Positions 3,264-38,328 of a stretch of 64,000 nucleotides of DNA are shown piece after piece (within the stretch, counting starts at the first letter, position 1; every line of letters begins with the position of its first letter). A model generated the notes under the pieces. That model did not search any database, was not told the DNA's origin, and was given only the letters and a program-made list of their open reading frames with translations. Position numbers and translations under genes: made by a program. This stretch comes from Escherichia phage F13, in sequence record OP745617; one strand, given 5' to 3'.

Positions 3264-3553
3264 GATTAAGCCTAGCTCAGATTCAGACATTATATCGCAT
3301 GGAAGACGGCACATCATACATGTTGCGCGGCGACCGCAAGAAGGCTTATGAGAAACGGCCTTCATTGTTTCACGACGTTAACGCGCCATCAATCCCTGTC
3401 TTATTCCGGCTGGGCCTTGTTGACTGGAAAGTGCCAGGAGAGAAAGACCCAACTCGATATTCACCGGTTGTGATGACAAAGAAAGGTCGTGCAGCATTAA
3501 AAGAAATTAAAGAGCATATGGCTGGAGAAAAATACTATGACATCAAATCTTAA
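3260..3553 (+). CDS. hypothetical early protein (97 aa)
   Basis: ATGA overlap; motif GAGAAGACAACAATG also precedes the gene at 3718. Confidence 0.4.
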   Translation: MRLSLAQIQTLYRMEDGTSYMLRGDRKKAYEKRPSLFHDVNAPSIPVLFRLGLVDWKVPGEKDPTRYSPVVMTKKGRAALKEIKEHMAGEKYYDIKS

Positions 3554-3717
3554 GGCCCGTTTGTTATTCATCAAGCCGCATGTGCCATATAAGATTAGTA
3601 AGCGCACCTGGCTTAACATTTACAACCGCAGCGGCGACCGTTGTCTGTACAAGGCGAAGCGACGCAAGAAGGTATATTCTTACACAACATCTATCAAATA
3701 AATAGGAGAAGACAACA

Positions 3718-4221
3718 ATGAAAATAGAACAACTCGAAGCAGTATTGGAAATGGCCGTAAAAGCTGGCGCAATCAGAAGCTATCGCCGCGAGAAGTCGGA
3801 AAACGATATGGTGTTTTGTCGCAACTTCTATATCGTCGGCAACCTTAATGACCACTACACCATCGAGTGGTATACTAACATGATGACGCTTAAGTCGCGC
3901 ACCATGGAGCTTTGGTGTGATGACATCTGCTTATCCAACACCCATCCATCCTACGACGTTGCATTGGCATTCTATTACGGAAGCCGTCAACCTGTCGCCC
4001 ACATCGGTGAGAAGCATGAGCATCTTAAGGCGCGACCAGAGGAATCAATGGAAGGTTGGATTGAATGGGCTGGCGGCAAGAATCCGGTGCCTGGTAAGAA
4101 GGTCATGTTGATGTGGAGGAATGAAGGGAAGTCTTCTTATTCATCCAATTCAGAAGGATGGCTATGGCAGCACAACGGAAGCGTTTATGACATCATTGCT
4201 TATCGCGTCGTGGAGGAATAA
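3718..4221 (+). CDS. hypothetical protein (167 aa) sharing a C-terminal domain with 5103..5528
   Basis: RBS GGAG; C-terminus WIEWAGGKNPVPGK...DIIAYRVVEE parallels the 5103..5528 product. Confidence 0.5.
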   Translation: MKIEQLEAVLEMAVKAGAIRSYRREKSENDMVFCRNFYIVGNLNDHYTIEWYTNMMTLKSRTMELWCDDICLSNTHPSYDVALAFYYGSRQPVAHIGEKHEHLKARPEESMEGWIEWAGGKNPVPGKKVMLMWRNEGKSSYSSNSEGWLWQHNGSVYDIIAYRVVEE

Positions 4222-4562
4222 TGGAAGAGCAAGAAGGCCGTGAGCTAACATTTGACGAGCAGATGCAAGAGCTTCAGCGCACATCGCCGCTGCGCGGTAA
4301 GGTTGTTGACATTGAGGCGAGCGAATCCAATCTCACCCAGTGGCGACTCAAGTGCACCAGCACAAGCAAGGATATGTTAAGCTTCAAAGTCGGTCAAACC
4401 TATTTGCTTTATGAGGCAAAAGGACTTATTATTGATGGAAGGCAAATCGTCTTCACGGTAGTCAGCGGAATGCGTTGGTTCGTGAAGCGTGATGTCGAGG
4501 GCCGTGATATGTTTGTCGCAGGCTTTCCAGAAACAAGATTCCAATTGGAGAAGGTTAAATGA
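4221..4562 (+). CDS. hypothetical protein (113 aa)
   Basis: Start overlaps upstream stop. Confidence 0.45.
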   Translation: MEEQEGRELTFDEQMQELQRTSPLRGKVVDIEASESNLTQWRLKCTSTSKDMLSFKVGQTYLLYEAKGLIIDGRQIVFTVVSGMRWFVKRDVEGRDMFVAGFPETRFQLEKVK

Positions 4563-4888
4563 AATTGAAATGGTACGTGGACCCTGAGCCGACAGGCCAA
4601 TACAGGTCATTCCAACGTCGCGGCTGGCCGATTTGTTACAGCGGCAATCCCGATAAAGAAGATTGCGAGATGCTCGCCGCGATAGTAAGTCTTAACCATG
4701 ACGGCTATGAAGGCCACTACGCGAGAGCAACCAACCTTCGGCTCAAGGTGCGCATCCATTTCAAGGTCGCAGGCGAGGACCGCACCGGACTCTCCAAAGA
4801 AGAGTTCAGCAGCATTGCCGAAGCAAAGGCATGGCTAAAGGCATTCTACAAGGCCAATCCTAAATTTTATCCAACTAAGGGTGCATAA
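4559..4888 (+). CDS. hypothetical protein (109 aa)
   Basis: ATGA overlap. Confidence 0.45.
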   Translation: MKLKWYVDPEPTGQYRSFQRRGWPICYSGNPDKEDCEMLAAIVSLNHDGYEGHYARATNLRLKVRIHFKVAGEDRTGLSKEEFSSIAEAKAWLKAFYKANPKFYPTKGA

Positions 4889-5106
4889 TGACCGATAAAC
4901 AATACGCAGTCGGGCAACGTGACATCGAGCAACTCGACGAGGGCGGTTATTATACACGCCACATCTATGCTATGACTCAAGAAGGACTTTACAGCAAGTC
5001 GGACATCGCCGCTGAACTGGCCCATCGCGACTTGCAAATTGATCTTCTCAAGATAGAAGTGCAGAACTTACGAAACACCCTGTTAAACACCTGGAGCTTA
5101 AAATGA
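4888..5106 (+). CDS. hypothetical protein (72 aa)
   Basis: Start overlaps upstream stop. Confidence 0.4.
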   Translation: MTDKQYAVGQRDIEQLDEGGYYTRHIYAMTQEGLYSKSDIAAELAHRDLQIDLLKIEVQNLRNTLLNTWSLK

Positions 5107-5528
5107 TACAGCGTTACGACCTGACATATGATGTGGCATCGGACGATTTCGCCGTCACTCCCGTTCCAGAAAGTCATGAAGGACGTTTTGTTGCATATGA
5201 GGACTATGAATCACTGCTCAAGCTTAATGAGTCGCTAACAAAAGAGATTGAGCAATACCACGAGCGCATCAAAGTCGCTGAAGATGTTATCAAGCTTTTT
5301 AGCGAGGCTGTTGAGAAATACAAGGAGCGCAACGTACCGATTAAGGAGGAAGCGTGGACCGTGTGGCTTGGTGGTGAGAATCCTGCACCTGGCGAGATTG
5401 TTGAATACAAGCTGCGCAATGGAGGTGATAAAGTATTGTCGAGACTTTCTGACCATCTTCACTGGGGTCATATAGGAGCACTCAAAGGCAGCGACATCAT
5501 TGCTTATCGGGTCGTTAAGGAGGGGTGA
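5103..5528 (+). CDS. hypothetical protein (141 aa), paralogous C-terminal domain
   Basis: C-terminus WTVWLGGENPAPGE...DIIAYRVVKEG similar to the 3718..4221 product. Confidence 0.5.
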   Translation: MIQRYDLTYDVASDDFAVTPVPESHEGRFVAYEDYESLLKLNESLTKEIEQYHERIKVAEDVIKLFSEAVEKYKERNVPIKEEAWTVWLGGENPAPGEIVEYKLRNGGDKVLSRLSDHLHWGHIGALKGSDIIAYRVVKEG

Positions 5529-6061
5529 TGGGTAACGATGCAGGATGGGGCAAGCCGCGATACTCAAAACTTGCCCACTACTTTGACGACGGCGAGCAAA
5601 TCAGCTTGTGCGGTAAATTCAACAAAGGCAATACAGAGTTGACCGATGCTCAAGAAATGGAATCAAGTCTGACAATTGGTGATTGCTCTAAGTGCAGAAA
5701 GGCATTATATGAGTTATTGACTCTAAGGGGATTGAAAGCGGCAAAATCAAGGGATGAATGGGTCATCAACGTCTGTGAAGGGAATCCAGAATTGATGGAT
5801 GAATTGCTGAAAACAGATGCCGTTAATGCCATTTTCAAAAGGCATTATAAAACTTGTATGCGTTACAAGATGAATGATGATATTATTTTTATGGTATTAT
5901 CTTATTCAAGGAGCACAATGGACGTCAAAAAGCTTCGACAATATCGCCACAAGGTCATGTGTGAATTGCGCCGTTTAGGAGTTATTGTGGATAATAATGT
6001 CATTAAAACGGAGTTAAAGAAGCGTGATAAAAGGAATGGTGACTGGAAGGTCAGCGGATAA
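5525..6061 (+). CDS. hypothetical protein (178 aa) with possible Cys cluster
   Basis: ATGA overlap; SLCGKF...DCSKCRK spacing suggests metal binding. Confidence 0.5.
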   Translation: MMGNDAGWGKPRYSKLAHYFDDGEQISLCGKFNKGNTELTDAQEMESSLTIGDCSKCRKALYELLTLRGLKAAKSRDEWVINVCEGNPELMDELLKTDAVNAIFKRHYKTCMRYKMNDDIIFMVLSYSRSTMDVKKLRQYRHKVMCELRRLGVIVDNNVIKTELKKRDKRNGDWKVSG

Positions 6062-6319
6062 ATAAACACTGTTTACGTGTTTTGAAGAATGGAATGTGTG
6101 CAATGGGTCGCTTTATGCGGCCTTTTGTCGTTTGGGTCATGTTTTGCTATGGAATAATTATGAGGTTGTGTTTTATTTATTAATTGTGCGGAAATATTTA
6201 GAAATATATATAAACAGGATTGTTAATATTTTAATAGTTTATGGCTATTGGTCCGTGGTGTTTGTTAGATTCTATCTATGGATTGGATTTTCTTGGGTCG
6301 TGAAACGTGGTTTTGAACA

Positions 6320-6690
6320 CATTTGATACGCCTAAAATACGGTTAAAAATTAAGCGTATCATGGCTGCAGGCCGCGCCGTTCCTGGATTCCTCTTTTCCA
6401 AATTGGTACACCCTTACGTCATGATACGTCATGGTTTTTTATCCGTATCAGTGTACAACCCTTGCCGCGCCTGGCTTGTACATTAATCTTACGGATGATA
6501 CGGATAAAACTGAGCATCGTTATATATAGAATTCGAAAAATTAATTAACTCCATTTTAAAAACATTTATATTAATTTTTTTCATATCCTCATACTTATGT
6601 TAATTTATATATTTAACGTATCATCCGTAAGATATAAGTAAAAACAAAGACTTGCGGCAATACGGATGATACGTCATGATACGCTTCAAC
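6320..6690. repeat. iteron-like module: direct and inverted ATCCGTATC / GATACGGAT 9-mers flanking an AT-rich core (copy 1)
   Basis: Repeats read directly (tatccgtatca, ttacggatgatacggat, cgtatcatccgtaag, tacggatgatacgtcatgatacg); AT-rich core 6530-6615; homologous module at 22845-23135. Confidence 0.7.
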
Positions 6691-6874
6691 CAGCCAGCAG
6701 CGGCTAAGTCGTTGATTTGCATAACAAGCGGCAAAAGGGATGGATTTCTTTTATACGTATCAAACAGTACACCACGCACCACGGTCCGTTATCCATTCAG
6801 CAATATGATTTGTGTACGTTTATAGCCATAATGAACATCAATCTGCACTTGAATATAATGTCCATCCATTGTAT

Positions 6875-8095
6875 AATTCACACTATTAATTTGCACTATG
6901 GGATTTTGCACTATGAGTCAAGATTATGTAGCGATGCCTGAAGACTTTGAAGACCCGCGATTCGCAGAGCACAATCAGGCTTTATTCGATGAGTTCATTG
7001 ACCTTGTTATTCAGGGTCATGACATGCGCGCAGCTTTTGCACTAGTATTTGGAATGGAAGTTGCAACGGATAACTACACTGGCCAGCGAATCCTTTGCAC
7101 GCAACGCAATCCATACTACAAGATGCGCTTCAAAAAGCGTATGGAAGAGATGCCACTCAAGGATTTGTGGAGCGTAAAAGGTGCAATTCACAATTTGGTT
7201 AAGCTTGTTCGTGATCCAGAAGTCGCGGCGTCAGCCAAGCTTAATGCTATTCGTGAACTGAATATCATCTACGGCATCACGATGATTGATGAAAACGGCA
7301 ATAGTAAAATGGGCCGTTCCATGGACGATTTCTACAAGGATTTTGGAGAGGCGGCCAAAGAAGGTGAGCAATTCTCCCGCCACTAGCCAATTTGCACTAT
7401 AAAACGGCCCTAGAACACATTTTCTCCAATTCTAGGGCCATCGGTAATACGACGGGGAAGGTTACAAACATAAACGCGTTAGAAAGTGTATTATTATAAG
7501 TCATCTTTTAGTCACCTTACGTAACAATTTACGACCTTCAACCGTCCAATCGAACGACTCCACCAGCAGATTCGCACTATAACCTAAGACGATGCGTCCC
7601 TTCTCGTTATCGACCCGCCAACAAGTCTCGAATAGCATTCGATTTGCACTATTAACTATTGCCGCAACTCGCGTAGGATAAGCGCAATTTGAACTATGGT
7701 CGTAAAGGGATAAGGTGCGACCACTTCCGATGGACAACGTAGCGATGAGAATGAGCGTATTCATAAGCCACCAATTTGCACTATGAAAAGCGACCCCGAA
7801 GGGCCGCCATTCGATTAGATAATCTGGAAGGTATAGGATTTGTTGCCGAACTCAAAGTTCAAGCGCCCAGCTTCCTTAAGCTTCATGCGGAAGCGAATGT
7901 GCTTGCTATCCGGCAAGCCCAGCACGGCGAACGCTACGCGGACCGATTTGAACTCGCCTACACCCTCGACCATAACGCCGTTACGGGTGAGACGCTTTTG
8001 CGCCACTTCCTTATTATCCCAACTTTTTGCAATACCTTCGCTATTCGAACGGCGATGGGAAGGAGTTCCATTTTGCACTACGCAATTTGCACTAT
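6875..8095 (+). repeat. array of about 10 copies of the 12-bp motif (A/G)ATTTGCACTAT, all on the plus strand
   Basis: Copies at 6875, 6888, 6903, 7389, 7569, 7641, 7686, 7773, 8071, 8083 (some with one mismatch). Confidence 0.7.
6898..7386 (+). CDS. hypothetical protein (157-162 aa); speculative small terminase or DNA-binding protein
   Basis: ORF starting inside the first motif copies (alternative ATG at 6913); the terminase idea is only from size and the adjacent repeat array. Confidence 0.4.
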   Translation: MGFCTMSQDYVAMPEDFEDPRFAEHNQALFDEFIDLVIQGHDMRAAFALVFGMEVATDNYTGQRILCTQRNPYYKMRFKKRMEEMPLKDLWSVKGAIHNLVKLVRDPEVAASAKLNAIRELNIIYGITMIDENGNSKMGRSMDDFYKDFGEAAKEGEQFSRH

Positions 8096-8441
8096 CGTTT
8101 AGACCGCTCTTAACGAAGGCTTCATACTCTTCGTCGGTCATCGCGTCGAGTTCTTCCTGGGTCGGCTCGGCCTTTTTAACGACCGCACGCGCCTTATGCG
8201 TTTTTACATCGCTGGACACTTCCTCGCGCGACTTCGCTTCGGGGATGGGCGATTCGTTGGACGGCTCATCGAGCGCGTTTAAGGACTCGATTAACGCGAT
8301 TACGCGAGTCTCGGCGGTACGGCGGTCCGCAAATTTCTTAATCGGCTTCGAACCGGAATTTGCATTATAAAATGCAACGAGGTCGGCGGTCTTAGTTGCG
8401 ATAACGTCGCCGCTAGTCGAGAAACGATTTAAGCTAACCAT
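7815..8441 (-). CDS. hypothetical protein (208 aa)
   Basis: Protein-like composition (acidic stretch EEELDAMTDEEYEAF); the antisense plus-strand ORF looks like a shadow. Confidence 0.45.
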   Translation of the reverse strand: MVSLNRFSTSGDVIATKTADLVAFYNANSGSKPIKKFADRRTAETRVIALIESLNALDEPSNESPIPEAKSREEVSSDVKTHKARAVVKKAEPTQEELDAMTDEEYEAFVKSGLNDSANCVVQNGTPSHRRSNSEGIAKSWDNKEVAQKRLTRNGVMVEGVGEFKSVRVAFAVLGLPDSKHIRFRMKLKEAGRLNFEFGNKSYTFQII

Positions 8442-8521
8442 AATGAACTCCTATTTGTTAGGGCGCTAGGCGCGAAAGAATTTTATTAAAGCGCCGCGCA
8501 CGACGCTCTAAAAATCCTCTC

Positions 8522-8806
8522 TTACGCTTCGACGAGGGAGAAGGTCTCAAATTCTTCTTCGCCCATAACGAGTAAGATGTTACCGATTTCGACCGCTTCG
8601 AAGAAGTATCCGTTAACGTTTACTTCGAAGGCTTCGCGGTCCGATTCCGGTAACGCCGCGTAAAGTTTAAAAGCCTCGGCGACCGTTACCCCACCCGCCT
8701 CGATGGTCTGGTCTACGTTCGCGGCGTAGACTTCGGATAAAATTTGTTTTACGCCGTAGTTCTCGACGATAGCGTTACGGATGGAAGAAACGTTAAGAAT
8801 AGCCAT
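8522..8806 (-). CDS. small protein (94 aa), paralog family member
   Basis: Aligns with the 9744..10034 product (SxIR, VY..NVD..IE, NG[YF].[FY]..EIG); own promoter upstream. Confidence 0.5.
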   Translation of the reverse strand: MAILNVSSIRNAIVENYGVKQILSEVYAANVDQTIEAGGVTVAEAFKLYAALPESDREAFEVNVNGYFFEAVEIGNILLVMGEEEFETFSLVEA

Positions 8807-8874
8807 TTTAAACTCCTAGTTGGGAGAGGCGTTAACGACCTATTCGCTAACTCATCCCGTCCCGATATGAGTAC

Positions 8875-8902
8875 ATTATAATATAGTGTAGAAAAAAGTA
8901 AA
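8875..8902 (-). promoter_or_regulatory. sigma70-like promoter on minus strand (-35 TTTACT, 16-bp spacer, -10 TATAAT)
   Basis: Reverse complement of 8875-8902; inverted copy of the promoter module at 9345-9373. Confidence 0.5.
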
Positions 8903-8946
8903 GCACTTTTTCGATAAAAATGCGATAAATTATTTTATCTTTTTTC

Positions 8947-8974
8947 TTTACTTCTTCGTACACTCGCGTATACT
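8947..8974 (+). promoter_or_regulatory. sigma70-like promoter (-35 TTTACT, 16-bp spacer, -10 TATACT)
   Basis: Diverges from the minus-strand promoter; drives the gene at 9031. Confidence 0.45.
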
Positions 8975-9030
8975 TGTTTATATCGAGACGGGCGATGGCC
9001 CTTCCTTCTACTAGCATCGGGAGCTTTATT

Positions 9031-9333
9031 ATGACTACTTTAATCTCTTCCATCCTTACTTACGACGAAGACCGTTTAACCGTTCGCTCTCTTATCGCCG
9101 CCGTTAACGCCGAACTAGAATCTAGCGCCATTAAGGTCCGCGCGGTTGCCTTCGTCGGTCTTTCCTTCGACGATATCAAGTACGCCGAACGTAGCGCCAT
9201 CCGCTTCGCGAAGACCGACGACGAAGCCGTTACCCTTATCGAGACGGTTACTCCGCGCGGCGAAACGTTAATTATCGTCGAGTATATCGACGTAGAAGGC
9301 GATAAGGCTTATAAATATTTTATCGCAAAATAA
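9031..9333 (+). CDS. small protein (100 aa), probable distant member of the same paralog family
   Basis: ATG with GGGAG RBS; 3' 200 bp of this gene is duplicated in the tandem repeat. Confidence 0.5.
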   Translation: MTTLISSILTYDEDRLTVRSLIAAVNAELESSAIKVRAVAFVGLSFDDIKYAERSAIRFAKTDDEAVTLIETVTPRGETLIIVEYIDVEGDKAYKYFIAK

Positions 9334-28944: not shown

Positions 28945-30483
28945 GTGATCAGTCAATCTCGTTATATTAAAATTGTATCAGGGGTCGGAGCAGGCGCGGC
29001 TGTTGCAGTTCGCAAACTGTCGCTTCGCATCATGACTTCCAATACAGTTCTGCCGCCAGGCATTGTAGCAGAATTTTCAACTGCTGATGCCGTTGGATCA
29101 TATTTCGGTTTTTCTTCCGAAGAATACAAGCGTGCAGCACTGTATTTCGGATTCATCAGCAAGCAAATCAACTCGCCTGATTCAATCAGCTTTTCTCGCG
29201 TTGTATCCACGGCGATTCCTGCAATGGTTATCGGCGACACTGAGCCTAAAACGCTTGCTACTTTCCAGGCATTCACTGGCGCTATCTTAAGCATCACTTA
29301 TGACGGCACAGACTACCTGACTGACGCCATCAACCTTTCAGCGGCAACAAGTCTTGCCAACGTAGCGGAACTTTTGGAAACGGCAATCAACACCAAGTTT
29401 GCAGCAGAAGGTGGCACGTCGGTGCCTGCACTTGCTGATGCAGAAGTGTATTGGAATGCCAACACCCAGCAGTTCACTTTGGAAGCCGCTCCGTCGACCG
29501 CTGGTGCTGGAAACCTTTCGATTAACGTCACAGGTCAACCGACAGACCCATCTCAGGCGCTTGGTTGGACGACTACTGGCACCGTTACGGTTGCTGGACA
29601 GGGTGTAGCAAGTCCGGTAGAAGCCATCGCGGCATCTGTGGAGATTTCCAACAACTTTGGCTCATTCCTTTTCGCTGGAGCAGACCGAACGCTGGAAGAA
29701 ATCACAGCCGTTGCAGCTTGGACTCACTCGCAGAACAACATGTACATGTATCTGTTCTCGACTGCATTCGCCAACATCGGCTCATACTATACCGCGTTGA
29801 AAGGTTACTCAGGCGTTGGTATGATGATCCGTGCAACTAACCTCGCGAATGATTACATCGACCAGGCGCCTGCTGAAATTCTTGCGGCGACAAACTATAA
29901 CACTGTAAATGCAACTCAAAACTACATGTATTATCAGTTTGAAACGCGAAATGTAACCGTATCGACTGATTCACGCGCAGATACTGCTGATCAAAACCGT
30001 GCAAACTATATCGGTGCGACTCAGCAAGCTGGTCAAACTCTCGCGTTCTTCCAGCGTGGTGTTCTGATGGGCGGGTCTACCGCAGCAGTTGACATGAACA
30101 CTTATGCCAACGAGATGTGGCTTAAATCTGCTATCACTTCTCAGCTGTTCAGCATGTTCTTGAATCTTGGTCGCGTGCCTGCAAACGAAGAAGGCAAAGC
30201 GACTGTCCAAGCCATGATTCAAGTTGCTGTTGACAATGCGAAGGTTAACGGCACCATCTCTGTCGGTAAGGCGCTGACGGAAATTCAGAAACAGTACATC
30301 ACGCAAACCTCCGGTGACAACACTGCTTGGCGGCAGGTTGAGACTATCGGTTATTGGTTGACTGTCGATTTTGACACTGAAACCACTTCCGATAACCGCA
30401 CCGAATACTATGCAACATACACGCTAATCTACTCTAAAGATGATGCTGTGCGTCGCGTTGAAGGTCGTGACGTTCTTATTTAA
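28945..30483 (+). CDS. tail sheath protein candidate (512 aa, GTG start)
   Basis: Size and position before small tube-like proteins; AAGAGGA RBS; no motif confirmed. Confidence 0.5.
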   Translation: MISQSRYIKIVSGVGAGAAVAVRKLSLRIMTSNTVLPPGIVAEFSTADAVGSYFGFSSEEYKRAALYFGFISKQINSPDSISFSRVVSTAIPAMVIGDTEPKTLATFQAFTGAILSITYDGTDYLTDAINLSAATSLANVAELLETAINTKFAAEGGTSVPALADAEVYWNANTQQFTLEAAPSTAGAGNLSINVTGQPTDPSQALGWTTTGTVTVAGQGVASPVEAIAASVEISNNFGSFLFAGADRTLEEITAVAAWTHSQNNMYMYLFSTAFANIGSYYTALKGYSGVGMMIRATNLANDYIDQAPAEILAATNYNTVNATQNYMYYQFETRNVTVSTDSRADTADQNRANYIGATQQAGQTLAFFQRGVLMGGSTAAVDMNTYANEMWLKSAITSQLFSMFLNLGRVPANEEGKATVQAMIQVAVDNAKVNGTISVGKALTEIQKQYITQTSGDNTAWRQVETIGYWLTVDFDTETTSDNRTEYYATYTLIYSKDDAVRRVEGRDVLI

Positions 30484-30530
30484 ATAATTGCCGCCGTAAA
30501 TGGCGGCCATCTCTCTGAGAGGAATCTGTA

Positions 30531-30998
30531 ATGATTAACGTTTCCGGTTTTGGCGCTTCGATTCGTTTGGTAGCATCAAACACTTTTCCGAATGGTGTGA
30601 CTCTTTCTGATTTTGCAGATGATGCTGATCCGATTGACGCGCCGGACCTGCAAATCTCTGAGGCTGCAATGGGCCTTAACGGTGACTTAGTAGTATGGAA
30701 CCGTGCAAACCCGCTTGAAGTAGGTGTGAACATCATCCCTACTTCTGAAAGTGATGTCAACTTGGACGTTCTTGCAGCTGCAAACCGCGTAGGCAAGCGT
30801 AAGAACTCTGCAAAAGACGTGATCACACTTGTGCTGACTTATCCTTCTGGAATGGTTATCACGCTAAACAAAGGCACCTTGACAACTGGTTCAGTAATTC
30901 CTGGCATCCAGTCTCAAGGTCGTGTGAAAACACGTCAATATCGCTTCAAGTTTGAGAACGTAGTCAAAACTGGCGTGAGCAACCAAGAGATTTTATAA
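30531..30998 (+). CDS. tail tube protein candidate (155 aa)
   Basis: Position after sheath; paralog of 31949..32446. Confidence 0.5.
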   Translation: MINVSGFGASIRLVASNTFPNGVTLSDFADDADPIDAPDLQISEAAMGLNGDLVVWNRANPLEVGVNIIPTSESDVNLDVLAAANRVGKRKNSAKDVITLVLTYPSGMVITLNKGTLTTGSVIPGIQSQGRVKTRQYRFKFENVVKTGVSNQEIL

Positions 30999-31327
30999 TG
31001 TATCAAATACCACTTGACAGCGTACCTAACCAGAATATCAGCTTTAACGTTGACGGTGCATATTGGCAGTTGCACATTTTTGCCGCTATCGAGCACATGT
31101 GCGCCGACGTATACCGCAACGGTGAACTTTTGATTCAAGGGGTGCGCTGTTTTGGTGGTATCCCAATGGTGCCTTATAAGTATCTCATGATTGGGTACGG
31201 TAATTTCATTTTCGACAGCGTACCTGATTATGAAAGTTTTAACTCTGGCGGCTGTAATCTATATTACATGTCAGAATCTGAGTTGGCTGAATTCCAGGCA
31301 ACTGCTGAAGCGGAGTTTGCAATTTGA
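30998..31327 (+). CDS. structural protein (109 aa)
   Basis: Start overlaps upstream stop. Confidence 0.45.
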   Translation: MYQIPLDSVPNQNISFNVDGAYWQLHIFAAIEHMCADVYRNGELLIQGVRCFGGIPMVPYKYLMIGYGNFIFDSVPDYESFNSGGCNLYYMSESELAEFQATAEAEFAI

Positions 31328-31680
31328 CAACTCTAACAATTGAAGTTAACGAAAATAATGACCTTTTTCTGCCTGATGGAAGAAACTTAAATATTCTTTC
31401 AGGAGAAAAAGCGATGGTGCAAGTAATCAAGGCCGCGCACCAGATGCGACTTGGTGAAGACTTGTACGATATAGAAAACGGTGTCGATTATTTGGGGACC
31501 GTTTTCAAGTCGCCCGTTGACGAAGACGGTGCGCGAAAGTCGATTGCAGATGCTATTCTGAAGAAAGCAGACGTTGCCGGAATCGACTCGTTGACTGTCA
31601 CCATCCAAAACGGTATCCTTGGATTCACTGCAGAAGTGGTGACTATTTATGGCGAACGTATAAAGGTGAGTAATCAATAA
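31324..31680 (+). CDS. structural protein (118 aa)
   Basis: Overlapping start. Confidence 0.45.
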   Translation: MTTLTIEVNENNDLFLPDGRNLNILSGEKAMVQVIKAAHQMRLGEDLYDIENGVDYLGTVFKSPVDEDGARKSIADAILKKADVAGIDSLTVTIQNGILGFTAEVVTIYGERIKVSNQ

Positions 31681-31946
31681 TGGCACAAGTAATTCATTTT
31701 GCAAATGGCGTCATGAAATTTGGCGAAAAATTTGAAGACGCATCAGAGCTGTTTAATAAGAAGGTTGATCCTGTTGCAGAAATCAAAGAGCAGGTCGAAG
31801 AAAAATCCGTTGAACAAAAACTAGATTTTGATTCCATGAGCGTTTCAGAATTGAAGTCTTATGCTAAAGAAAATGGCATTGACATCAAGGGTCTTTCTTA
31901 TAAGGATGAAATTCTTGCTGCAGTTAAATCTGCATCTGCGGAGTAA
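31680..31946 (+). CDS. structural protein (88 aa)
   Basis: Overlapping start. Confidence 0.4.
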   Translation: MAQVIHFANGVMKFGEKFEDASELFNKKVDPVAEIKEQVEEKSVEQKLDFDSMSVSELKSYAKENGIDIKGLSYKDEILAAVKSASAE

Positions 31947-31948
31947 AC

Positions 31949-32446
31949 ATGGTCAATATTAGTGGATTTGGCACAAGCATTAGAATTGTCGCTCTTCAAT
32001 CTTTTCCTGTTGGGCTGAATATCAGTTCTTTGTCTGATGACCAGGATTCGCTAATCATTGAGGAAGTTGAATCAGTAGGTTATCAACTTACTTACGACGG
32101 CGGCATTTGCATATACGACAAAGCCGCCGTCGTTCGCGTATCCATTGCGGTCATTCCAAACACTGAAGACGACATAAATCTTAAGCTTTTATTATCTGCC
32201 CGTAAAGGTGGATTCAAGTGGTTGCCAATTCAGGATGTGACATCGATGCTCATTACATATCCTGACGGTGGAAGGGTGGCATTCTCTAACGGAACGATAA
32301 TCAGCGGTCCGCTTGGTGACTCCATAGAGCAATCAGGCCGTCGCAAGACAAACCGATACACATTTGTGTTTGCCAGCTACGGTGGCGCACAGAGCACGTC
32401 TCAAATTGCCAAGGGCGTGGTGCAGAGCATATTGGGGTCCATTTAA
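31949..32446 (+). CDS. tail tube-like paralog (165 aa)
   Basis: Aligns with the 30531..30998 product (M[IV]N[VI]SGFG[AT]SIR[LI]VA...[LM][VI][LI]TYP[SD]G...G[TS]...G...QS[QG]R.KT..Y.F.F). Confidence 0.5.
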   Translation: MVNISGFGTSIRIVALQSFPVGLNISSLSDDQDSLIIEEVESVGYQLTYDGGICIYDKAAVVRVSIAVIPNTEDDINLKLLLSARKGGFKWLPIQDVTSMLITYPDGGRVAFSNGTIISGPLGDSIEQSGRRKTNRYTFVFASYGGAQSTSQIAKGVVQSILGSI

Positions 32447-32979
32447 TGGCTATCGATTTACTGTCATATAGTCTATCAAACAGAAGCTTCACGATAAAGA
32501 GCTTCAACCTTGGAGAAGTATCCACGCTTGGATGGGCCATAGTCAACGTCAAAATAAGACTCCAAGCAAAGATATTCAAAAACCAAAGGGAAGACGGCAG
32601 CTATATTGTCGATGGCAGAGTAAAGATGCCGCGAATACTCACTGTCACCGTGATAGCTCAGACGAAAAGCGCATCAGATGCAATAGCTAAGATGTTGCAA
32701 AACAGGTCGACTATATACACAATTAATTCCCGTGGTCTAATATTCGAACGTATGGTGCTGCAAAATAACAACTTCAGCCAGGACGCTGACAATATAACGT
32801 CTCAGCCCATACAATTGGTCTTCCATGAGATATTAACACAGCAGGATGTGTCTATTCAAACAGCGCAGGCAGGCGACTCAACAGTAATAGAGCGCGGCAT
32901 TGCATACATAAAAGAAACTTCTGCCAGCGTCACCGGCGTCGCTACAAAGGTGATGAATGGTATCAAGGGGATGTTCTGA
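32446..32979 (+). CDS. tail structural protein (177 aa)
   Basis: ORF in the tail operon. Confidence 0.45.
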   Translation: MAIDLLSYSLSNRSFTIKSFNLGEVSTLGWAIVNVKIRLQAKIFKNQREDGSYIVDGRVKMPRILTVTVIAQTKSASDAIAKMLQNRSTIYTINSRGLIFERMVLQNNNFSQDADNITSQPIQLVFHEILTQQDVSIQTAQAGDSTVIERGIAYIKETSASVTGVATKVMNGIKGMF

Positions 32980-33539
32980 TGGACTTCGTTTCGATTCTGC
33001 TTTCTGGTCAATCTTTGACCATAACGAATGAGTCAACAGGTCTTCCTGTCTGGACAAGGCTTTCACCTGTTTCTGCAGAAATAACATCCCCAGCAGAAAC
33101 AACTCAATTCCCTCTTGCTGGCACAGCCATGCAGGTTGTCGAAGTATCAAGCACGTCATCAGTAAGCAATTTACAGGCAGCAAAGGTTGTAATGCCAGCC
33201 CATATGGCGTTAAACGTAATTTGCAATGACCAGTCTACAATTGAAAATATCATAAATTCATTTGATGATGACGAAGTCACATTTTCAATAACTTCTCGAA
33301 GCATCATTGCCAGTAAAATGTCGATGTCCGACGTTGAAATAACCCAGTCAGAAGAAAACTTGAATGGAGTCTCAATAGTAATAACTTTCGAGCAAACGTC
33401 ATTTAGCATTCAAGGAAGCTTCGACCCTAAACAATCTGCAGACGAATCATCAAATGGTGTTGCTATTAAAGAACCAGTCAGTTTGACTACAACTGTGAGT
33501 TCGTTATATAATAAAATAAAATCAACAGTAGGAATATAA
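32979..33539 (+). CDS. tail structural protein (186 aa)
   Basis: ORF in the tail operon. Confidence 0.45.
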   Translation: MDFVSILLSGQSLTITNESTGLPVWTRLSPVSAEITSPAETTQFPLAGTAMQVVEVSSTSSVSNLQAAKVVMPAHMALNVICNDQSTIENIINSFDDDEVTFSITSRSIIASKMSMSDVEITQSEENLNGVSIVITFEQTSFSIQGSFDPKQSADESSNGVAIKEPVSLTTTVSSLYNKIKSTVGI

Positions 33540-33540
33540 A

Positions 33541-33957
33541 ATGAAGATCACCAACAAACAAACTGGTCGTACAGTAGAAATTAAAATCAGCAAAATGACT
33601 GCGATGGAAGGCTGGAATATTCAGCGTCGCTTTGTCGAATTTGCAATGTCGAAAGACCCTGCGTTTCGTTCAGAGTATACGATGGAAGTGTTGAGCTTCG
33701 CAAAAGTCGAGCTTGATGTGGGTCAAGAAATCCCATTAAGCACTGGTGCACTAATTGACAACCATCTTGGTGACTGGGAAAACCTTAAAGAAGTCTTCGA
33801 AGCAGTCCTCATGGAGAACGGTATAAACCCAGATACTCACGCCGAGCGTGAAGGCTACTGGGAACAAGCTGGCGGCGAAATGGCTGCAGCATTCATCGGC
33901 GAATCGATGCGATTAATCGCGCCATTCCTCAGCGGCGAGACTCCAAACAAGGGGTAA
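33541..33957 (+). CDS. tail assembly chaperone candidate (138 aa)
   Basis: Position immediately upstream of tape measure. Confidence 0.4.
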   Translation: MKITNKQTGRTVEIKISKMTAMEGWNIQRRFVEFAMSKDPAFRSEYTMEVLSFAKVELDVGQEIPLSTGALIDNHLGDWENLKEVFEAVLMENGINPDTHAEREGYWEQAGGEMAAAFIGESMRLIAPFLSGETPNKG

Positions 33958-33960
33958 ACT

Positions 33961-36141
33961 GTGTCTGACTCATTAGAAAAATTTGTGCTTCAATATACGG
34001 TGGACTTGAAAGAGTCCATCAATCGTCTTGAGCAATTGCAAGATAAAGTTGATCAGACAAACAAAAAGGCGAAATCCGCTGGAAAAGATTTCTCTGGAGC
34101 ATTCAAAGATGTTTTTGGCGAGCTAAAGCCGCTCACTGGTGAGCTAGGGTCAATCGACGGAATACTTGCGCGGCTGACATATCGTTTTGCCGCGCTTGTT
34201 CCTGTGGTAGCAGGATTGGCTGTCGTTGTCAAATCCATCGTTGATGTTCGAAAAGAATACGAAGCGCAAAGAAAGCTTGGTTTTGAAGCCGGACTCTCTC
34301 CAATGGGTGTCGAACAACTACAACGACAGTTGAATGAAAGTTCAGGTGGCATCCTTGGCGCACAGGGGTCGCGCGATTTAATCAGCAAAGCTTCTAATTT
34401 GGCATTCAATGCATACACCAACCCTGATGTGATGAACAAGGACAACTTGTTGCTGAACAAGATGGGGACAAGTCCTTTCAATAGTAACGGCGGCATCAAA
34501 GACACGAATCAGCTGCTTGATGAAATTGGAACAAAGCTGAGAAGTGTTAATGAGCAAACCGCTCGTGCCATTGGTGCTCTGGCAGGATTCACGGCTGATG
34601 AAGTCCGCGCCCTTCGTGAGCGCAACCAGTCTGTGAAAGAAAGCACGCGCATAAGTGACGAAGAAACCGCGAAGCTGCAAAGACAGCAAGCTGCTCTTGA
34701 GACTATACGAAATAGTATGGGGCAAATTCAAGAAGATTGGCGGCGTATTGAACTGGTCATCGGTGAAAACGTTATGCCTGCATTCTCGACGCTTGTCAGC
34801 AAAACCGCCGATACAGTCGAAGGATTCCAGATGATGTTCCAAAGAATGTCCGATGGGTGGTCTGAATTCGTCGACAATTTCATCGCTGACTTGAAACATC
34901 CGTTCGACAAGCAGGCCGCTGTCAACGAGCGTCACGAGCGTGCCGTTGATAGATGGATCACGCAGATGGCAGACGGCGATGTGAAACGCCAGAGGAACCA
35001 GGAGCAAAACGCTGCTGAACAACGCTCTGCACAGGCTCTTTTTACTCGCGATATCAACCTGTTTTCAAGTGCCGTTTCAACCTTTGCTGGCGTGATTGAT
35101 GAGCGTCAAGCTTGGGCGGCATGGGCAGGTGAAATCGGGCGCAGCGCAGGGCAATCCGCGATGCCTGGAACACCAGCATTGAATACTGGCGCGACCGTAG
35201 GGAATAATCTTGGGTCAGGGAATCCGACAGCATACGACTCAATATATGAGGAAGCTTCAAAACGCTATGGTATACCTGTTGCGATGATGAAGGCCGTAAC
35301 AGAAGTCGAATCTGGATTCAACCCCAATGCCGTAAGCGGAGCAGGTGCGACCGGACTGATGCAAATCATGCCTTCCAACTTCAAGGGTCTTGGTATCACA
35401 GACGGCAACGACCCTAGACAAAACATTATGGGCGGCGCTCAACTGTTGAAAGAGTATTTAAACGCTGCCAACGGCGATTGGAATCTTGCGCTGACGATGT
35501 ATCACGGTGGCTACGACCGCAGCGGCTGGGGCAAGAATACACGCGCTTATCCTGGAAAGGTCATGGCAGCTCTCGACCGACAATCCAATGGTGAGTATGC
35601 CACGGCAGCGCCGCAAGGTGCACCAGTTACTCCAGTACTTAGCGGTAGCGGAGCGGAAGCACCAAAGGGCCGTTATGCACCAGTACAAGGTCAATCGCGC
35701 CAAACGGTGCAATACAGGCAATTGCAAGAAGCCATTGCAGGATACCTGAACGTACCAGTTGAGCAGTTGATGCAGGGACAAGTCAACAAAGGTGATATTG
35801 ACTTTGCTCAAACTTACCTTAAGCTTGGAACGCAAAGGGATTATATTAAAAACATGCAACTGGCTTCAACTCCAGGTGTAAGACCGAACATTCAAGCCGA
35901 AGCGATGAAAAACGCTCGTCTTGCTGCATTCCAACTTGAAGCATTCCAGAAATACGGCGGCGACCTTTCCGCGAATAGTCGACCTGGTGGGCGTGATATT
36001 ACTATGGGTCAGAAAAACGTTGTCATCAACGTCAACGGCGCTCAAGACCCACGCAGCACGGCATTCGAAACGAAACGAGTGCTTGAACAAGATGATATCA
36101 ACGACATAAACAACCTTACTGCTACACCTTTGAAGTGGTGA
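33961..36141 (+). CDS. tape measure protein with lytic transglycosylase (SLT) domain
   Basis: 726 aa; helical N-terminus; SLT motifs EVESGFNPNAVSGAGATGLMQIMP...GGAQLLKEYL. Confidence 0.7.
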   Translation: MSDSLEKFVLQYTVDLKESINRLEQLQDKVDQTNKKAKSAGKDFSGAFKDVFGELKPLTGELGSIDGILARLTYRFAALVPVVAGLAVVVKSIVDVRKEYEAQRKLGFEAGLSPMGVEQLQRQLNESSGGILGAQGSRDLISKASNLAFNAYTNPDVMNKDNLLLNKMGTSPFNSNGGIKDTNQLLDEIGTKLRSVNEQTARAIGALAGFTADEVRALRERNQSVKESTRISDEETAKLQRQQAALETIRNSMGQIQEDWRRIELVIGENVMPAFSTLVSKTADTVEGFQMMFQRMSDGWSEFVDNFIADLKHPFDKQAAVNERHERAVDRWITQMADGDVKRQRNQEQNAAEQRSAQALFTRDINLFSSAVSTFAGVIDERQAWAAWAGEIGRSAGQSAMPGTPALNTGATVGNNLGSGNPTAYDSIYEEASKRYGIPVAMMKAVTEVESGFNPNAVSGAGATGLMQIMPSNFKGLGITDGNDPRQNIMGGAQLLKEYLNAANGDWNLALTMYHGGYDRSGWGKNTRAYPGKVMAALDRQSNGEYATAAPQGAPVTPVLSGSGAEAPKGRYAPVQGQSRQTVQYRQLQEAIAGYLNVPVEQLMQGQVNKGDIDFAQTYLKLGTQRDYIKNMQLASTPGVRPNIQAEAMKNARLAAFQLEAFQKYGGDLSANSRPGGRDITMGQKNVVINVNGAQDPRSTAFETKRVLEQDDINDINNLTATPLKW

Positions 36142-36145
36142 TAAT

Positions 36146-37018
36146 TTGAAAAAGAGAATCCTTAAAGTCACCTTATCTATGCCGGATGGCACAAGCCAAG
36201 TGCTTGATGAAGGATTGATGCTTAGATGCCGAATCAAAAAGGCAGCACTTTCCGTGCAAAATAAGGCCACAATCGAAGTCGCAGGATTGACAGGGTACTT
36301 GAGAGAGTACCTGCTTTCCAACTTCACCGCATTCAACAAACGTCTGCGTGATCAAGGTCAATTGGCGGCGAATTATGTCAACGTAACAATTGAAGCTGGA
36401 TATAGAGAAGGCAACGTTGTTAGTAGCAACTTAGTCTACAAGGGGCAAGTCACAACGGTCGAGATAACAGCGCCGCCGCCGAACATCGTCATACGCATCA
36501 CTTGCTACACCAACCAGATAAACAGGACTAAGTTTATCACTCAAGCTGCACCGTCAAACCCAACATTCAAAGAGTTTGTGGAGTGGTCGGCAAAGCAAAT
36601 GGATATTGATACTGTTATATGCGATACTTCGATTAACAATCAGCGCCTTGTTAACCCAGGCCGCACAACATATGTTGCAGCCGCCTTGTTGCTTGAGATT
36701 CAGAACTATCAAAGGAACTCTATTGCGGCATATATCGATGATGATACGCTCATCGTCAAGGATAAAGACAAAATTCTGAATCCAGAACAGATAACGGTGA
36801 TTGAGGAATTTGTCGGAATACCGATGTGGAACGAGTGGGGCGCTGACTTCACTTGCATGTATAACGCGGATTTGAAGCTTGCCCAAGGTGTGAAATTCAA
36901 ATCAGTCTTAAACCCAAGCTTGAACGACACCACATTCGTCATCATGCAACTTGAATATGATTTAGCAAGTCGTGATGACATATTTACGGTGACGGGCGGC
37001 GTTGCACCATCGGCCTAA
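36146..37018 (+). CDS. distal tail / baseplate protein (290 aa, TTG start)
   Basis: ORF after tape measure. Confidence 0.45.
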   Translation: MKKRILKVTLSMPDGTSQVLDEGLMLRCRIKKAALSVQNKATIEVAGLTGYLREYLLSNFTAFNKRLRDQGQLAANYVNVTIEAGYREGNVVSSNLVYKGQVTTVEITAPPPNIVIRITCYTNQINRTKFITQAAPSNPTFKEFVEWSAKQMDIDTVICDTSINNQRLVNPGRTTYVAAALLLEIQNYQRNSIAAYIDDDTLIVKDKDKILNPEQITVIEEFVGIPMWNEWGADFTCMYNADLKLAQGVKFKSVLNPSLNDTTFVIMQLEYDLASRDDIFTVTGGVAPSA

Positions 37019-37020
37019 AT

Positions 37021-37542
37021 ATGAGAAAGAATAAAGTAATTGATTTGTTTGGAGTTACTTATGAAATACATCAATTCAGCGCAATAGATGCGTTTGAAAT
37101 GGTTGATGCGATAAGCATATTAACTCCACTTGAATTATTAAGTGAATGTCATGTTATTAAATATGACGGAACTAAAGTCAGATTAAATTCTGAGAAGGCC
37201 ATCAGTGAAGAAGTGAAAAGTGTGCCAAATCACTTGCCGCCCAACCTTGTATTGAAAGTTCTAATGGAAGCGGTAAAGAAGCACAATTTTGGATTCCTCA
37301 GTGATTGGAAAGGCACTAAGATTCCAAATAGATTCTTGGCTGACGTTCCGACCGTGGAGCCTAATTATCTTGAGCCGATGGTTGCAAGCCTAATAAACAA
37401 TGGTCTTGCTTCGTTAAAAGAATTGGAAGAATATTATTCATTGCGTGATGCATTCGCTATGTTTGATGGACTAATAGCAAAATCACTTAATGAAGCCTAC
37501 TCAAACGAAGCTGCCATTAAAGAATCAAAGTCAAATCGCTAA
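37021..37542 (+). CDS. baseplate-associated protein (173 aa)
   Basis: ORF. Confidence 0.4.
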   Translation: MRKNKVIDLFGVTYEIHQFSAIDAFEMVDAISILTPLELLSECHVIKYDGTKVRLNSEKAISEEVKSVPNHLPPNLVLKVLMEAVKKHNFGFLSDWKGTKIPNRFLADVPTVEPNYLEPMVASLINNGLASLKELEEYYSLRDAFAMFDGLIAKSLNEAYSNEAAIKESKSNR

Positions 37543-37599
37543 AATATTGCTTATAGACTCCTTATAGATTATAATTTGTTGATCAGATATAAGGAGTCT

Positions 37600-38328
37600 A
37601 TGATGGCAGAAAAGTTAACCCAACTTACAAGCCCCAACCAAACTGACAAATCAAGTATGTTTGCCGCGCTGCAGGGAATGCTGGACCGTGGCAAGTATAC
37701 CACTGACGGCATGATTCCTGCACAAGTAATATCTTATGACCGCAAACAGAATTTAGCAGTCATAAAGCCTGTTATTCATTTCGTAAGTCTTGATGATAAA
37801 CCAGTGGAGCGTCAACCCCTGGTGTCAATTCCTGTGTTGGCAATCGGCGGCGGCGGCTTTGTAATCAACTTTCCTCTGAAAGAGGGTGATTTGGGCTGGA
37901 TATTCGCTGGCGACCGCGAGTTGTCGACATTCCTTGAAGAATTGAAGCCGACCGCGCCTACCAATGGTCGCGCGAAAACTTTCGCTGATGGACTGTTCAT
38001 ACCGGATGTATTTCGAAAATACACCATAAGCGGAGAGGATGCAGGCTCAATGGTAATCCAGTCACTCAGCGGCGCTGTCCGCATTGCATTAAGTGATGAC
38101 TCGATAAACATAACTGCATCCGCTGGAGTAAATGTGAAAACACCAATAACCACTATCGACCAACAATTGATAGTTAATGGAAAGGCAACGTTCAATGGTG
38201 GTATAGAAGGGAAAGAAGGAACGACGGCAACGCTTCCGACTGGCACAACAATCGGCGGCATAAATGTATCCACTCACGGTCACATAGGTAACGGACCTGG
38301 AAACAGAACTGGGGATATGATAGAATGA
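37600..38328 (+). CDS. baseplate hub / spike-like protein
   Basis: AAGGAG RBS; Gly-rich segments (IGGGGFVINFPLKEGDLGWIFAGD); assignment by position and composition. Confidence 0.4.
   Translation: MMAEKLTQLTSPNQTDKSSMFAALQGMLDRGKYTTDGMIPAQVISYDRKQNLAVIKPVIHFVSLDDKPVERQPLVSIPVLAIGGGGFVINFPLKEGDLGWIFAGDRELSTFLEELKPTAPTNGRAKTFADGLFIPDVFRKYTISGEDAGSMVIQSLSGAVRIALSDDSINITASAGVNVKTPITTIDQQLIVNGKATFNGGIEGKEGTTATLPTGTTIGGINVSTHGHIGNGPGNRTGDMIE

Follow-up and report, generated by a model that had tools for sequence, protein, structure and literature searches.

Two Paralogous Tube-Family Proteins, a Predicted Tail Tube and a Predicted Baseplate Tube, in the Tail Module of Escherichia Phage F13

Paralogous Genes in the Tail Module

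The sequence examined is a 64,000-nucleotide (nt) stretch of Escherichia phage F13 (OP745617), hereafter called the window, and all positions are those of this stretch. Its tail module contains two related open reading frames (ORFs) on the + strand, at 30531..30998 and 31949..32446, which encode products of 155 and 165 amino acids (aa), respectively. A preliminary description had reported two paralogous tube-like genes at this place with three small genes between them, and both points were borne out: the two ORFs were located, and exactly three ORFs (30998..31327, 31324..31680, and 31680..31946) lie between them. The BLASTP comparison of the 155-aa and 165-aa products resulted in 47 identities over 143 aligned positions (33%) and 61% positives, in an ungapped alignment with an E-value of 2e-32. 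This value is far beyond chance level, and the two proteins are confirmed as true paralogs. The N-terminal motif quoted in the preliminary description was also correct (MINVSGFGASIRLVA versus MVNISGFGTSIRIVA). However, the similarity is not literally full length, as had been claimed; the claim holds for the core, residues 1-143, but the 165-aa product has an extra C-terminal tail without counterpart in the 155-aa product.

Both products matched the Pfam family PF22764 (E217_Gp32) above its gathering cut-off of 27 bits and over nearly the whole 144-position model. The 155-aa product scored 203.8 bits (E 1.2e-60; model positions 1-143 of 144), and the 165-aa product scored 180.4 bits (E 1.9e-53; positions 2-143 of 144). 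Additionally, both paralogs are contained in phrog_2420.

Assignment of the Two Products

The assignment was based on the Pbunavirus phages E217 and Pa193, which are represented by the cryo-electron microscopy entries 8fuv, 8env, 8eon, 9b42, and 9b45. The best sequence matches of the 155-aa product in the PDB were Pa193 gp33, named "Tail tube" (9b42_M, E 1.4e-48), and E217 gp32 (8fuv_T, E 4.4e-42), whereas its matches to the baseplate-tube chains were far weaker (about E 3e-25; 167 bits for 9b42_M versus 92 bits for 9b45_M). The 165-aa product showed the opposite preference. Its best matches were Pa193 gp37, named "Baseplate tube" (9b45_M, E 1.1e-52, 181 bits), and E217 gp36 (8env_I, E 2.2e-49, 170 bits), while the tube chains were matched far more weakly (E 1e-21 to 3e-16; 80 bits for 9b42_M). 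Identity to the orthologs of the Pbunavirus phage SN was 54% and 51%, respectively, compared with 31-39% to the other paralog.

A profile search recovered 212 homologs, and the classes, identities, and bootstraps given here were obtained from the best 120 of them. These sequences fell into class A, with 77 sequences plus the 155-aa window protein, mostly of 145-155 aa, and class B, with 43 sequences plus the 165-aa window protein, of 162-167 aa except for one of 186 aa. Median identity was 53-56% within the classes (56% in class B) and 35% between them, and the top split of the tree, built by the unweighted pair group method with arithmetic mean, separated A from B in 200 of 200 bootstraps. 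The classes also differ in the number of residues after the last core strand, which is 21-26 in class B and 4-14 in class A. The results show that the two-class split is old, conserved, and selectively maintained.

The window proteins were then scored with hidden Markov models (HMMs) of the two classes. The 155-aa product obtained 248 bits with the class A HMM versus 135 bits with the class B HMM, and the 165-aa product obtained 274 bits with class B versus 128 bits with class A. The lengths of the C-terminal ends agree, with 14 residues past the F141 column in the 155-aa product, the upper end of the class A range, and 24 residues after the last core strand in the 165-aa product. From these comparisons, the 155-aa product is assigned as the putative tail tube protein proper, the ortholog of E217 gp32 and Pa193 gp33, and the 165-aa product as the putative baseplate tube, or "tail tube-B", the ortholog of E217 gp36 and Pa193 gp37.

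Structure Prediction

Each product was modeled as a monomer with AlphaFold2, using an alignment of the window protein and 116 homologs. The predicted local distance difference test (pLDDT) was 89.6 for the 155-aa model and 86.2 for the 165-aa model. The order of secondary-structure elements is nearly identical in the two models, which share the strands, the helix at residues 73-85, and the hairpin at about residues 43-57 that are features of the tube fold, a fold defined by two β-sheets facing each other, a single long α-helix, and an extended β-hairpin; in the 165-aa model, residues 150-164 form a further, C-terminal helix. Both models thus have the tube fold rather than the unrelated folds that would have spoken against the pairing proposed in the preliminary description.

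Foldseek searches against the PDB placed 9b42_M first for the 155-aa model, with a template modeling (TM) score of 0.90 and a root-mean-square deviation (RMSD) of 1.7 Å, and the E217 tube chain gave a TM-score of 0.86 (RMSD 1.7-1.8 Å). For the 165-aa model, ranks 1 and 2 by E-value were 9b45_M and 8env_I, with a TM-score of 0.82. The TM-scores of either model to 9b42_M, 8fuv_A, 8env_I, and 9b45_M ranged from 0.78 to 0.90, and superposition of a model on the ortholog of the other paralog gave 0.78-0.83. Other matches of both models were the tube proteins of Pam3, Sf14, Bas63, the Photorhabdus virulence cassette (PVC), the antifeeding prophage (AFP), phiTE, Mu, and lambda (gpV), together with Hcp.

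Genes around the Pair

The gene order of the module is that of Pbunavirus SN, namely sheath, tube, gp33, gp34, a slot gene, gp36, gp37, gp38, a gene preceding the tape measure gene, and the tape measure gene, and most neighbors of the pair have a one-to-one solved ortholog in E217 and Pa193. All the genes described below are on the + strand.

The tail sheath gene (28945..30483, 512 aa) matches DUF3383 (6.6e-119) and phrog_205 (7e-74) and is annotated as sheath in the RefSeq record of phage WFC. The class A tube gene lies directly downstream, beginning 47 nt past the sheath stop codon. This gap contains a perfect 6-bp GC stem at 30490-30507 (GCCGCC, a 6-nt loop, and GGCGGC), with no T-run on the + strand and a weakly unusual folding energy (z -1.9); the hairpin could be an element of mRNA stability or processing.

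The first of the three intervening genes (30998..31327, 109 aa) encodes a plug-like baseplate adaptor homologous to E217 gp33, to Pa193 gp34 ("helical bundle"), and to the Pam3 gp18 family, with matches to PF22479 (Pam3_gp18, 2.5e-16) and to the PDB chains 9b45_A (1.1e-26) and 8env_G (2.4e-26). The second (31324..31680, 118 aa) encodes the sheath initiator, as indicated by matches to 9b45_G (6.1e-23), 8env_H (1.8e-21), and phrog_120 (8e-21); its residues 1-111 align with residues 1-111 of Pa193 gp35 (9b45_G). The TTG codon at 31324 is most likely the start of this gene. It overlaps the upstream stop codon (TTGA), and a GGAG lies 8 nt before it. The RefSeq record of WFC (position 8470) starts the sheath initiator about 30 codons downstream, giving 88 aa, and this start probably truncates the gene.

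The third intervening gene (31680..31946) encodes a small protein of 88 aa with a SAP domain at residues 49-82 (Pfam SAP, 7e-06, 26.0 bits against a cut-off of 23.9). In the phage collection, this ORF was detected in 28 records only, all of Escherichia or Shigella phages of this group. It had no significant match among PDB sequences and no detectable similarity to the 143-aa ORF that occupies the same slot in Pbunavirus SN. Neither of these two ORFs belongs to the solved virions, and gp35 is not mentioned in the E217 paper (PMC10329688). This slot, flanked by the genes for the sheath initiator and the baseplate tube, is a variable position inside an otherwise conserved module.

Downstream, the class B gene adjoins two genes for the subunits of a cap ring. 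Subunit 1 (32446..32979, 177 aa) is the Dit-like, tube-related ortholog of E217 gp37 and of Pa193 gp38, named "ripcord-1", with matches to 9b45_S (1.1e-20), 8eon_A (2.9e-20), Gp38_E217 (3.4e-10), and phrog_2580; its Dit_like match (5.8e-05, 23.6 bits) is just below the 24.2-bit cut-off. Subunit 2 (32979..33539, 186 aa) is the ortholog of E217 gp38 and Pa193 gp39 ("ripcord-2"), with matches to 9b45_V (1.3e-27), 8eon_D (1.6e-27), and Gp38_E217 (1.8e-71). The two subunits form a second, weakly similar paralog pair (21% identity, E 2e-4). Both belong to phrog_2580 and Gp38_E217, and their Dit_like matches are weaker and below the cut-off of that family.

The protein encoded just upstream of the tape measure gene (33541..33957, 138 aa) had no Pfam match and belongs to phrog_4627 (3.9e-63), which has no assigned function. 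Its slot matches SN gp39 and gene 16 of the Bordetella phage considered below, and from position alone it is likely a tail assembly chaperone. The tape measure protein follows (33961..36141, 726 aa), with matches to phrog_2013 (4.6e-139) and several other tape-measure PHROGs and an SLT domain at residues 430-529 (2.8e-24). The trimeric baseplate hub (36146..37018, 290 aa) is the ortholog of E217 gp41 and Pa193 gp42 (8eon_E/9b45, 2.5e-85). The 173-aa ORF (37021-37542) that separates the hub and tip genes has no Pfam match; the tip gene (37576-38328) has a phage-protein N-terminal domain as its sole Pfam match.

Relatives and Conservation

The region 28945-33957 matches the Wifcevirus Escherichia phage vB_EcoM_SP13 (OP352608.1) with 100% identity and 27 other Escherichia and Shigella phage records, including WFC, WFH, and Bas98-101, with 89-99% identity. 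RefSeq taxonomy and the BASEL preprint place WFC, WFH, and Bas98-101 in Wifcevirus, a distant relative of Pbunavirus, and a Pbunavirus cryo-electron microscopy structure aided the annotation of the Wifcevirus structural genes (10.1101/2024.09.12.612763). In the phage collection, 735 matching places were found in 379 records, about two per genome. The hosts of the matching phages were mainly Pseudomonas (295) and Escherichia (26), with Burkholderia, Serratia, Xanthomonas, Vibrio, Pantoea, and others.

WFH, ECML-117, and FEC19 encode a protein 100% identical to the 165-aa product of the window. Since the WFH DNA over the tail module is only 89.5% identical to the window, this conservation indicates strong purifying selection.

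Proposed Roles in the Virion

In E217, gp32 forms the tube as 34 stacked hexamers, and gp36, which resembles gp32 (RMSD 3.6 Å), forms a hexameric ring concentric with the tube. The gp36 ring is the attachment surface for three gp37/gp38 heterodimers, which build a three-fold complex carrying the trimeric hub gp41 and the tip gp43; after contraction, the tube tip retains gp36, gp37/gp38, and gp41 (PMC10329688). In Pa193, the tube protein gp33 is present in 204 copies, gp37 is the baseplate tube, and gp38 and gp39 are ripcord-1 and ripcord-2 (PMC11456595). In both phages, contact with the hub and with the gp33 adaptor is made by the gp37/gp38 ring and not by gp36 (E217 numbering; PMC10329688, PMC11456595).

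The window resembles these phages in its two-paralog set and in the gene order from the sheath through the SLT-containing tape measure to the hub; each paralog best matches its own solved chain, and the predicted folds are the same. It differs in that the proteins are only 51-54% identical, the host is Escherichia coli or Shigella instead of Pseudomonas, the tape measure has 726 aa versus 858 codons in SN, and the slot holds the unrelated 88-aa SAP ORF instead of the 143-aa ORF of SN. We consider it very probable that the pair are ancient duplicates of a contractile-tail tube protein, each with its own job, one as tail tube and the other as baseplate tube.

According to the orthologs, the 155-aa product would polymerize into hexamers that stack around the tape measure and form the DNA conduit, while the 165-aa product would add one hexameric ring on the same axis, at the distal end of the tube. 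One face of this ring would be tube-like, so that the first tube ring could stack there and the 155-aa product could polymerize along the tape measure. The other face would rest on a heterohexameric ring of 3 + 3 copies of the 177-aa and 186-aa products, which would convert six-fold symmetry into the three-fold symmetry of the hub and tip. This cap and the 165-aa ring in it would be retained at the tube tip when the tail has contracted. The three intervening genes would contribute the plug-like adaptor, the sheath initiator, and the small SAP-domain protein. Because the tape measure is shorter than that of SN, the tube is probably built of fewer rings; if the 34 rings are scaled in proportion to the tape measure, a rough extrapolation suggests about 29.

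Three points weigh against this reading. First, the hexameric rings with a lumen of about 40 Å, their stoichiometry, their place within the virion, and the assembly order in the window phage are inferred by analogy, and the roles are those of E217 and Pa193 proteins that share 51-54% identity with the window products. Second, the C-terminal helix of the 165-aa model was predicted with low confidence (pLDDT about 63), and the class B tail is absent from the solved structures, Pa193 gp37 having been built for residues 1-151 of 167 (PMC11456595). Third, Shine-Dalgarno, promoter, and terminator scans provided no expression signal explaining a roughly 30-fold difference in copy number: both paralog genes have ordinary Shine-Dalgarno sequences, and between 24000 and 42500 the promoter-like matches (30 versus 26.6 expected) and terminator-like matches (17 versus 19.2 expected) were at chance level. 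The unequal copy number is presumably set by assembly, not by expression.

The preliminary description had suggested that the duplication could mean distinct tube and tube-initiator or baseplate-tube roles. The separation of roles is supported in its baseplate-tube form, as each paralog matches its own solved ortholog and the folds agree. The tube-initiator option for the 165-aa product did not hold. A tube initiator of the Pam3 gp17 type, a Dit-like ring placed directly on the hub and binding the plug through a C-terminal helical region, was considered for this product and rejected; the 165-aa product has no Pfam Dit_like or Gp38_E217 match, unlike the next two gene products, and the Pam3-type position falls to those genes (32446-33539). 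The comparison with Pam3 and a Bordetella phage, given below, settles this choice, leaving the 165-aa product as the predicted baseplate tube.

Alternative Explanations

Three other explanations were weighed against separate tail tube and baseplate tube roles. The one that survives best, although very improbable, is a heteromeric tube, in which both paralogs are bulk subunits that co-polymerize or alternate along its whole length. Both products have a complete tube fold, their models superpose well on either solved ortholog, and several tube-like chains occur in one sheath-tube entry elsewhere, such as cyanophage A-1(L) (8kee), which was among the Foldseek matches. However, in the solved relatives the class B ortholog is one baseplate ring and the tube is a homopolymer of E217 gp32 or Pa193 gp33 (PMC10329688, PMC11456595). 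Moreover, the classes have long been separate, class B has its own C-terminal tail, and the class B gene sits among the baseplate cap genes, not beside the sheath gene.

That both products are tail fiber proteins is hardly credible. PF22764 is described as "Tail fiber protein gp32", and phrog_2420 and many RefSeq and GenBank records carry the label "tail fiber protein". Nevertheless, the PDB entries that define the family name the chains tail tube and baseplate tube, in agreement with the papers (PMC10329688, PMC11456595), and the actual fiber of E217 is gp46 (PMC10329688). The predicted fold is a tube β-sandwich of the Hcp/gpV type without a fiber-like trimeric β-helix or coiled coil. The label was rejected for the pair on the basis of the fold and of the family-defining structures.

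There is almost no chance that the 165-aa copy is decaying or redundant and lacks a separate role, since nothing beyond the bare fact of duplication favors this, whereas a roughly two-copy form is kept in hundreds of phages whose hosts include Pseudomonas, Escherichia, Serratia, Burkholderia, and Xanthomonas, median identity within the class is 56%, the protein is unchanged across Wifcevirus genomes about 10% diverged in DNA, and the ortholog is an ordered structural component (PMC10329688, PMC11456595).

Consequences for Annotation

The tube and baseplate-tube pair is already known from the near-atomic structures of E217 (2023) and Pa193 (2024), and the literature already notes that Wifcevirus and Pbunavirus are homologous (10.1101/2024.09.12.612763). 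Even so, most public records, among them those of RefSeq and BASEL, give both paralogs and both cap-ring genes the label "tail fiber protein" or "hypothetical protein", and the RefSeq and GenBank annotation of WFC, SN, and the BASEL phages names four consecutive genes of the 30531-33539 region "tail fiber protein". The name appears in public records because PF22764, phrog_2420, and phrog_2580 carry this misnomer. The annotation should be corrected from "tail fiber protein" to tail tube, baseplate tube, and cap-ring subunits, as the mislabel could misdirect studies of host range or receptor binding in this phage group. Besides the relabeling, a useful by-product of the analysis is the comparison of single-copy and two-copy relatives.

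Single-Copy Relatives and Origin of the Duplication

The Bordetella phage vB_BaM-IFTN1 (39.8 kilobases, kb) contains one tube-family match in its whole record. This gene follows the sheath gene, matches PF22764, and belongs to class A (198 versus 118 bits). The region 3433-9297 of the same phage has one Dit-like gene, a plug of the Pam3_gp18 type, and a hub of the E217_GP41 type, all after the tape measure gene, and this module represents a single-copy, Pam3-like state. The Pam3 tube initiator, gp17, is a homohexamer seated on the hub, where it retains the plug gp18 and is the direct starting point for growth of the gp14 tube (PMC9942802).

The window shares with Pam3 the tube fold, 8hdw_1 being the best Foldseek match outside the Pbunavirus structures, and with both Pam3 and vB_BaM-IFTN1 a homologous plug (PF22479) and hub (PF22759; gp19 in Pam3). 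The difference lies in copy number and position: Pam3 and vB_BaM-IFTN1 have one tube gene, one Dit-like/initiator gene located after the tape measure gene, and no extra baseplate-tube ring, whereas in the window lineage the tube and initiator genes are both duplicated and placed before the tape measure gene. From this single-copy layout, we conclude that the E217/Wifcevirus lineage added the baseplate-tube ring by duplicating the tube gene. It follows that the same lineage separately split the initiator ring into two paralogous subunits. The comparison with the single-copy relatives places the duplication at the base of the E217-like lineage.

Tube-fold paralogs also build the first ring or rings between the hub and the tube and template tube polymerization in other contractile systems, such as gp48 and gp54 in T4, Afp5 and Afp7 in AFP, and Pvc5 and Pvc7 in PVC. 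Domain additions differ among these second-tube proteins, an example being the LysM domain of Afp7. The AFP and PVC baseplate and tube chains 6rao_F, 6rao_A, and 9qgl_1A were among the Foldseek matches of the window proteins. With identities of 9-16%, proteins of the AFP, PVC, and T4 type are fold-level relatives and not members of PF22764. The duplications in T4, AFP, and PVC and that in the window lineage were probably independent.

A further proposal, which we advance tentatively and at somewhat less than even odds, is that the baseplate-tube ring and the split of the Dit-like initiator arose together. Here, the starting point would have been a single-copy ancestor of about 40 kb, similar to Pam3 and the Bordetella phage, and in the ancestor of the 65-72 kb E217/Wifcevirus lineage two duplications would have occurred and the cap genes would have been relocated ahead of the tape measure gene. 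If this is true, the class B tail of 21-26 residues may fix the position of the ring or link the ring with the sheath initiator or tape measure, and the single-copy and two-copy relatives would form a before-and-after pair for the evolution of an adaptor from six-fold to three-fold symmetry.

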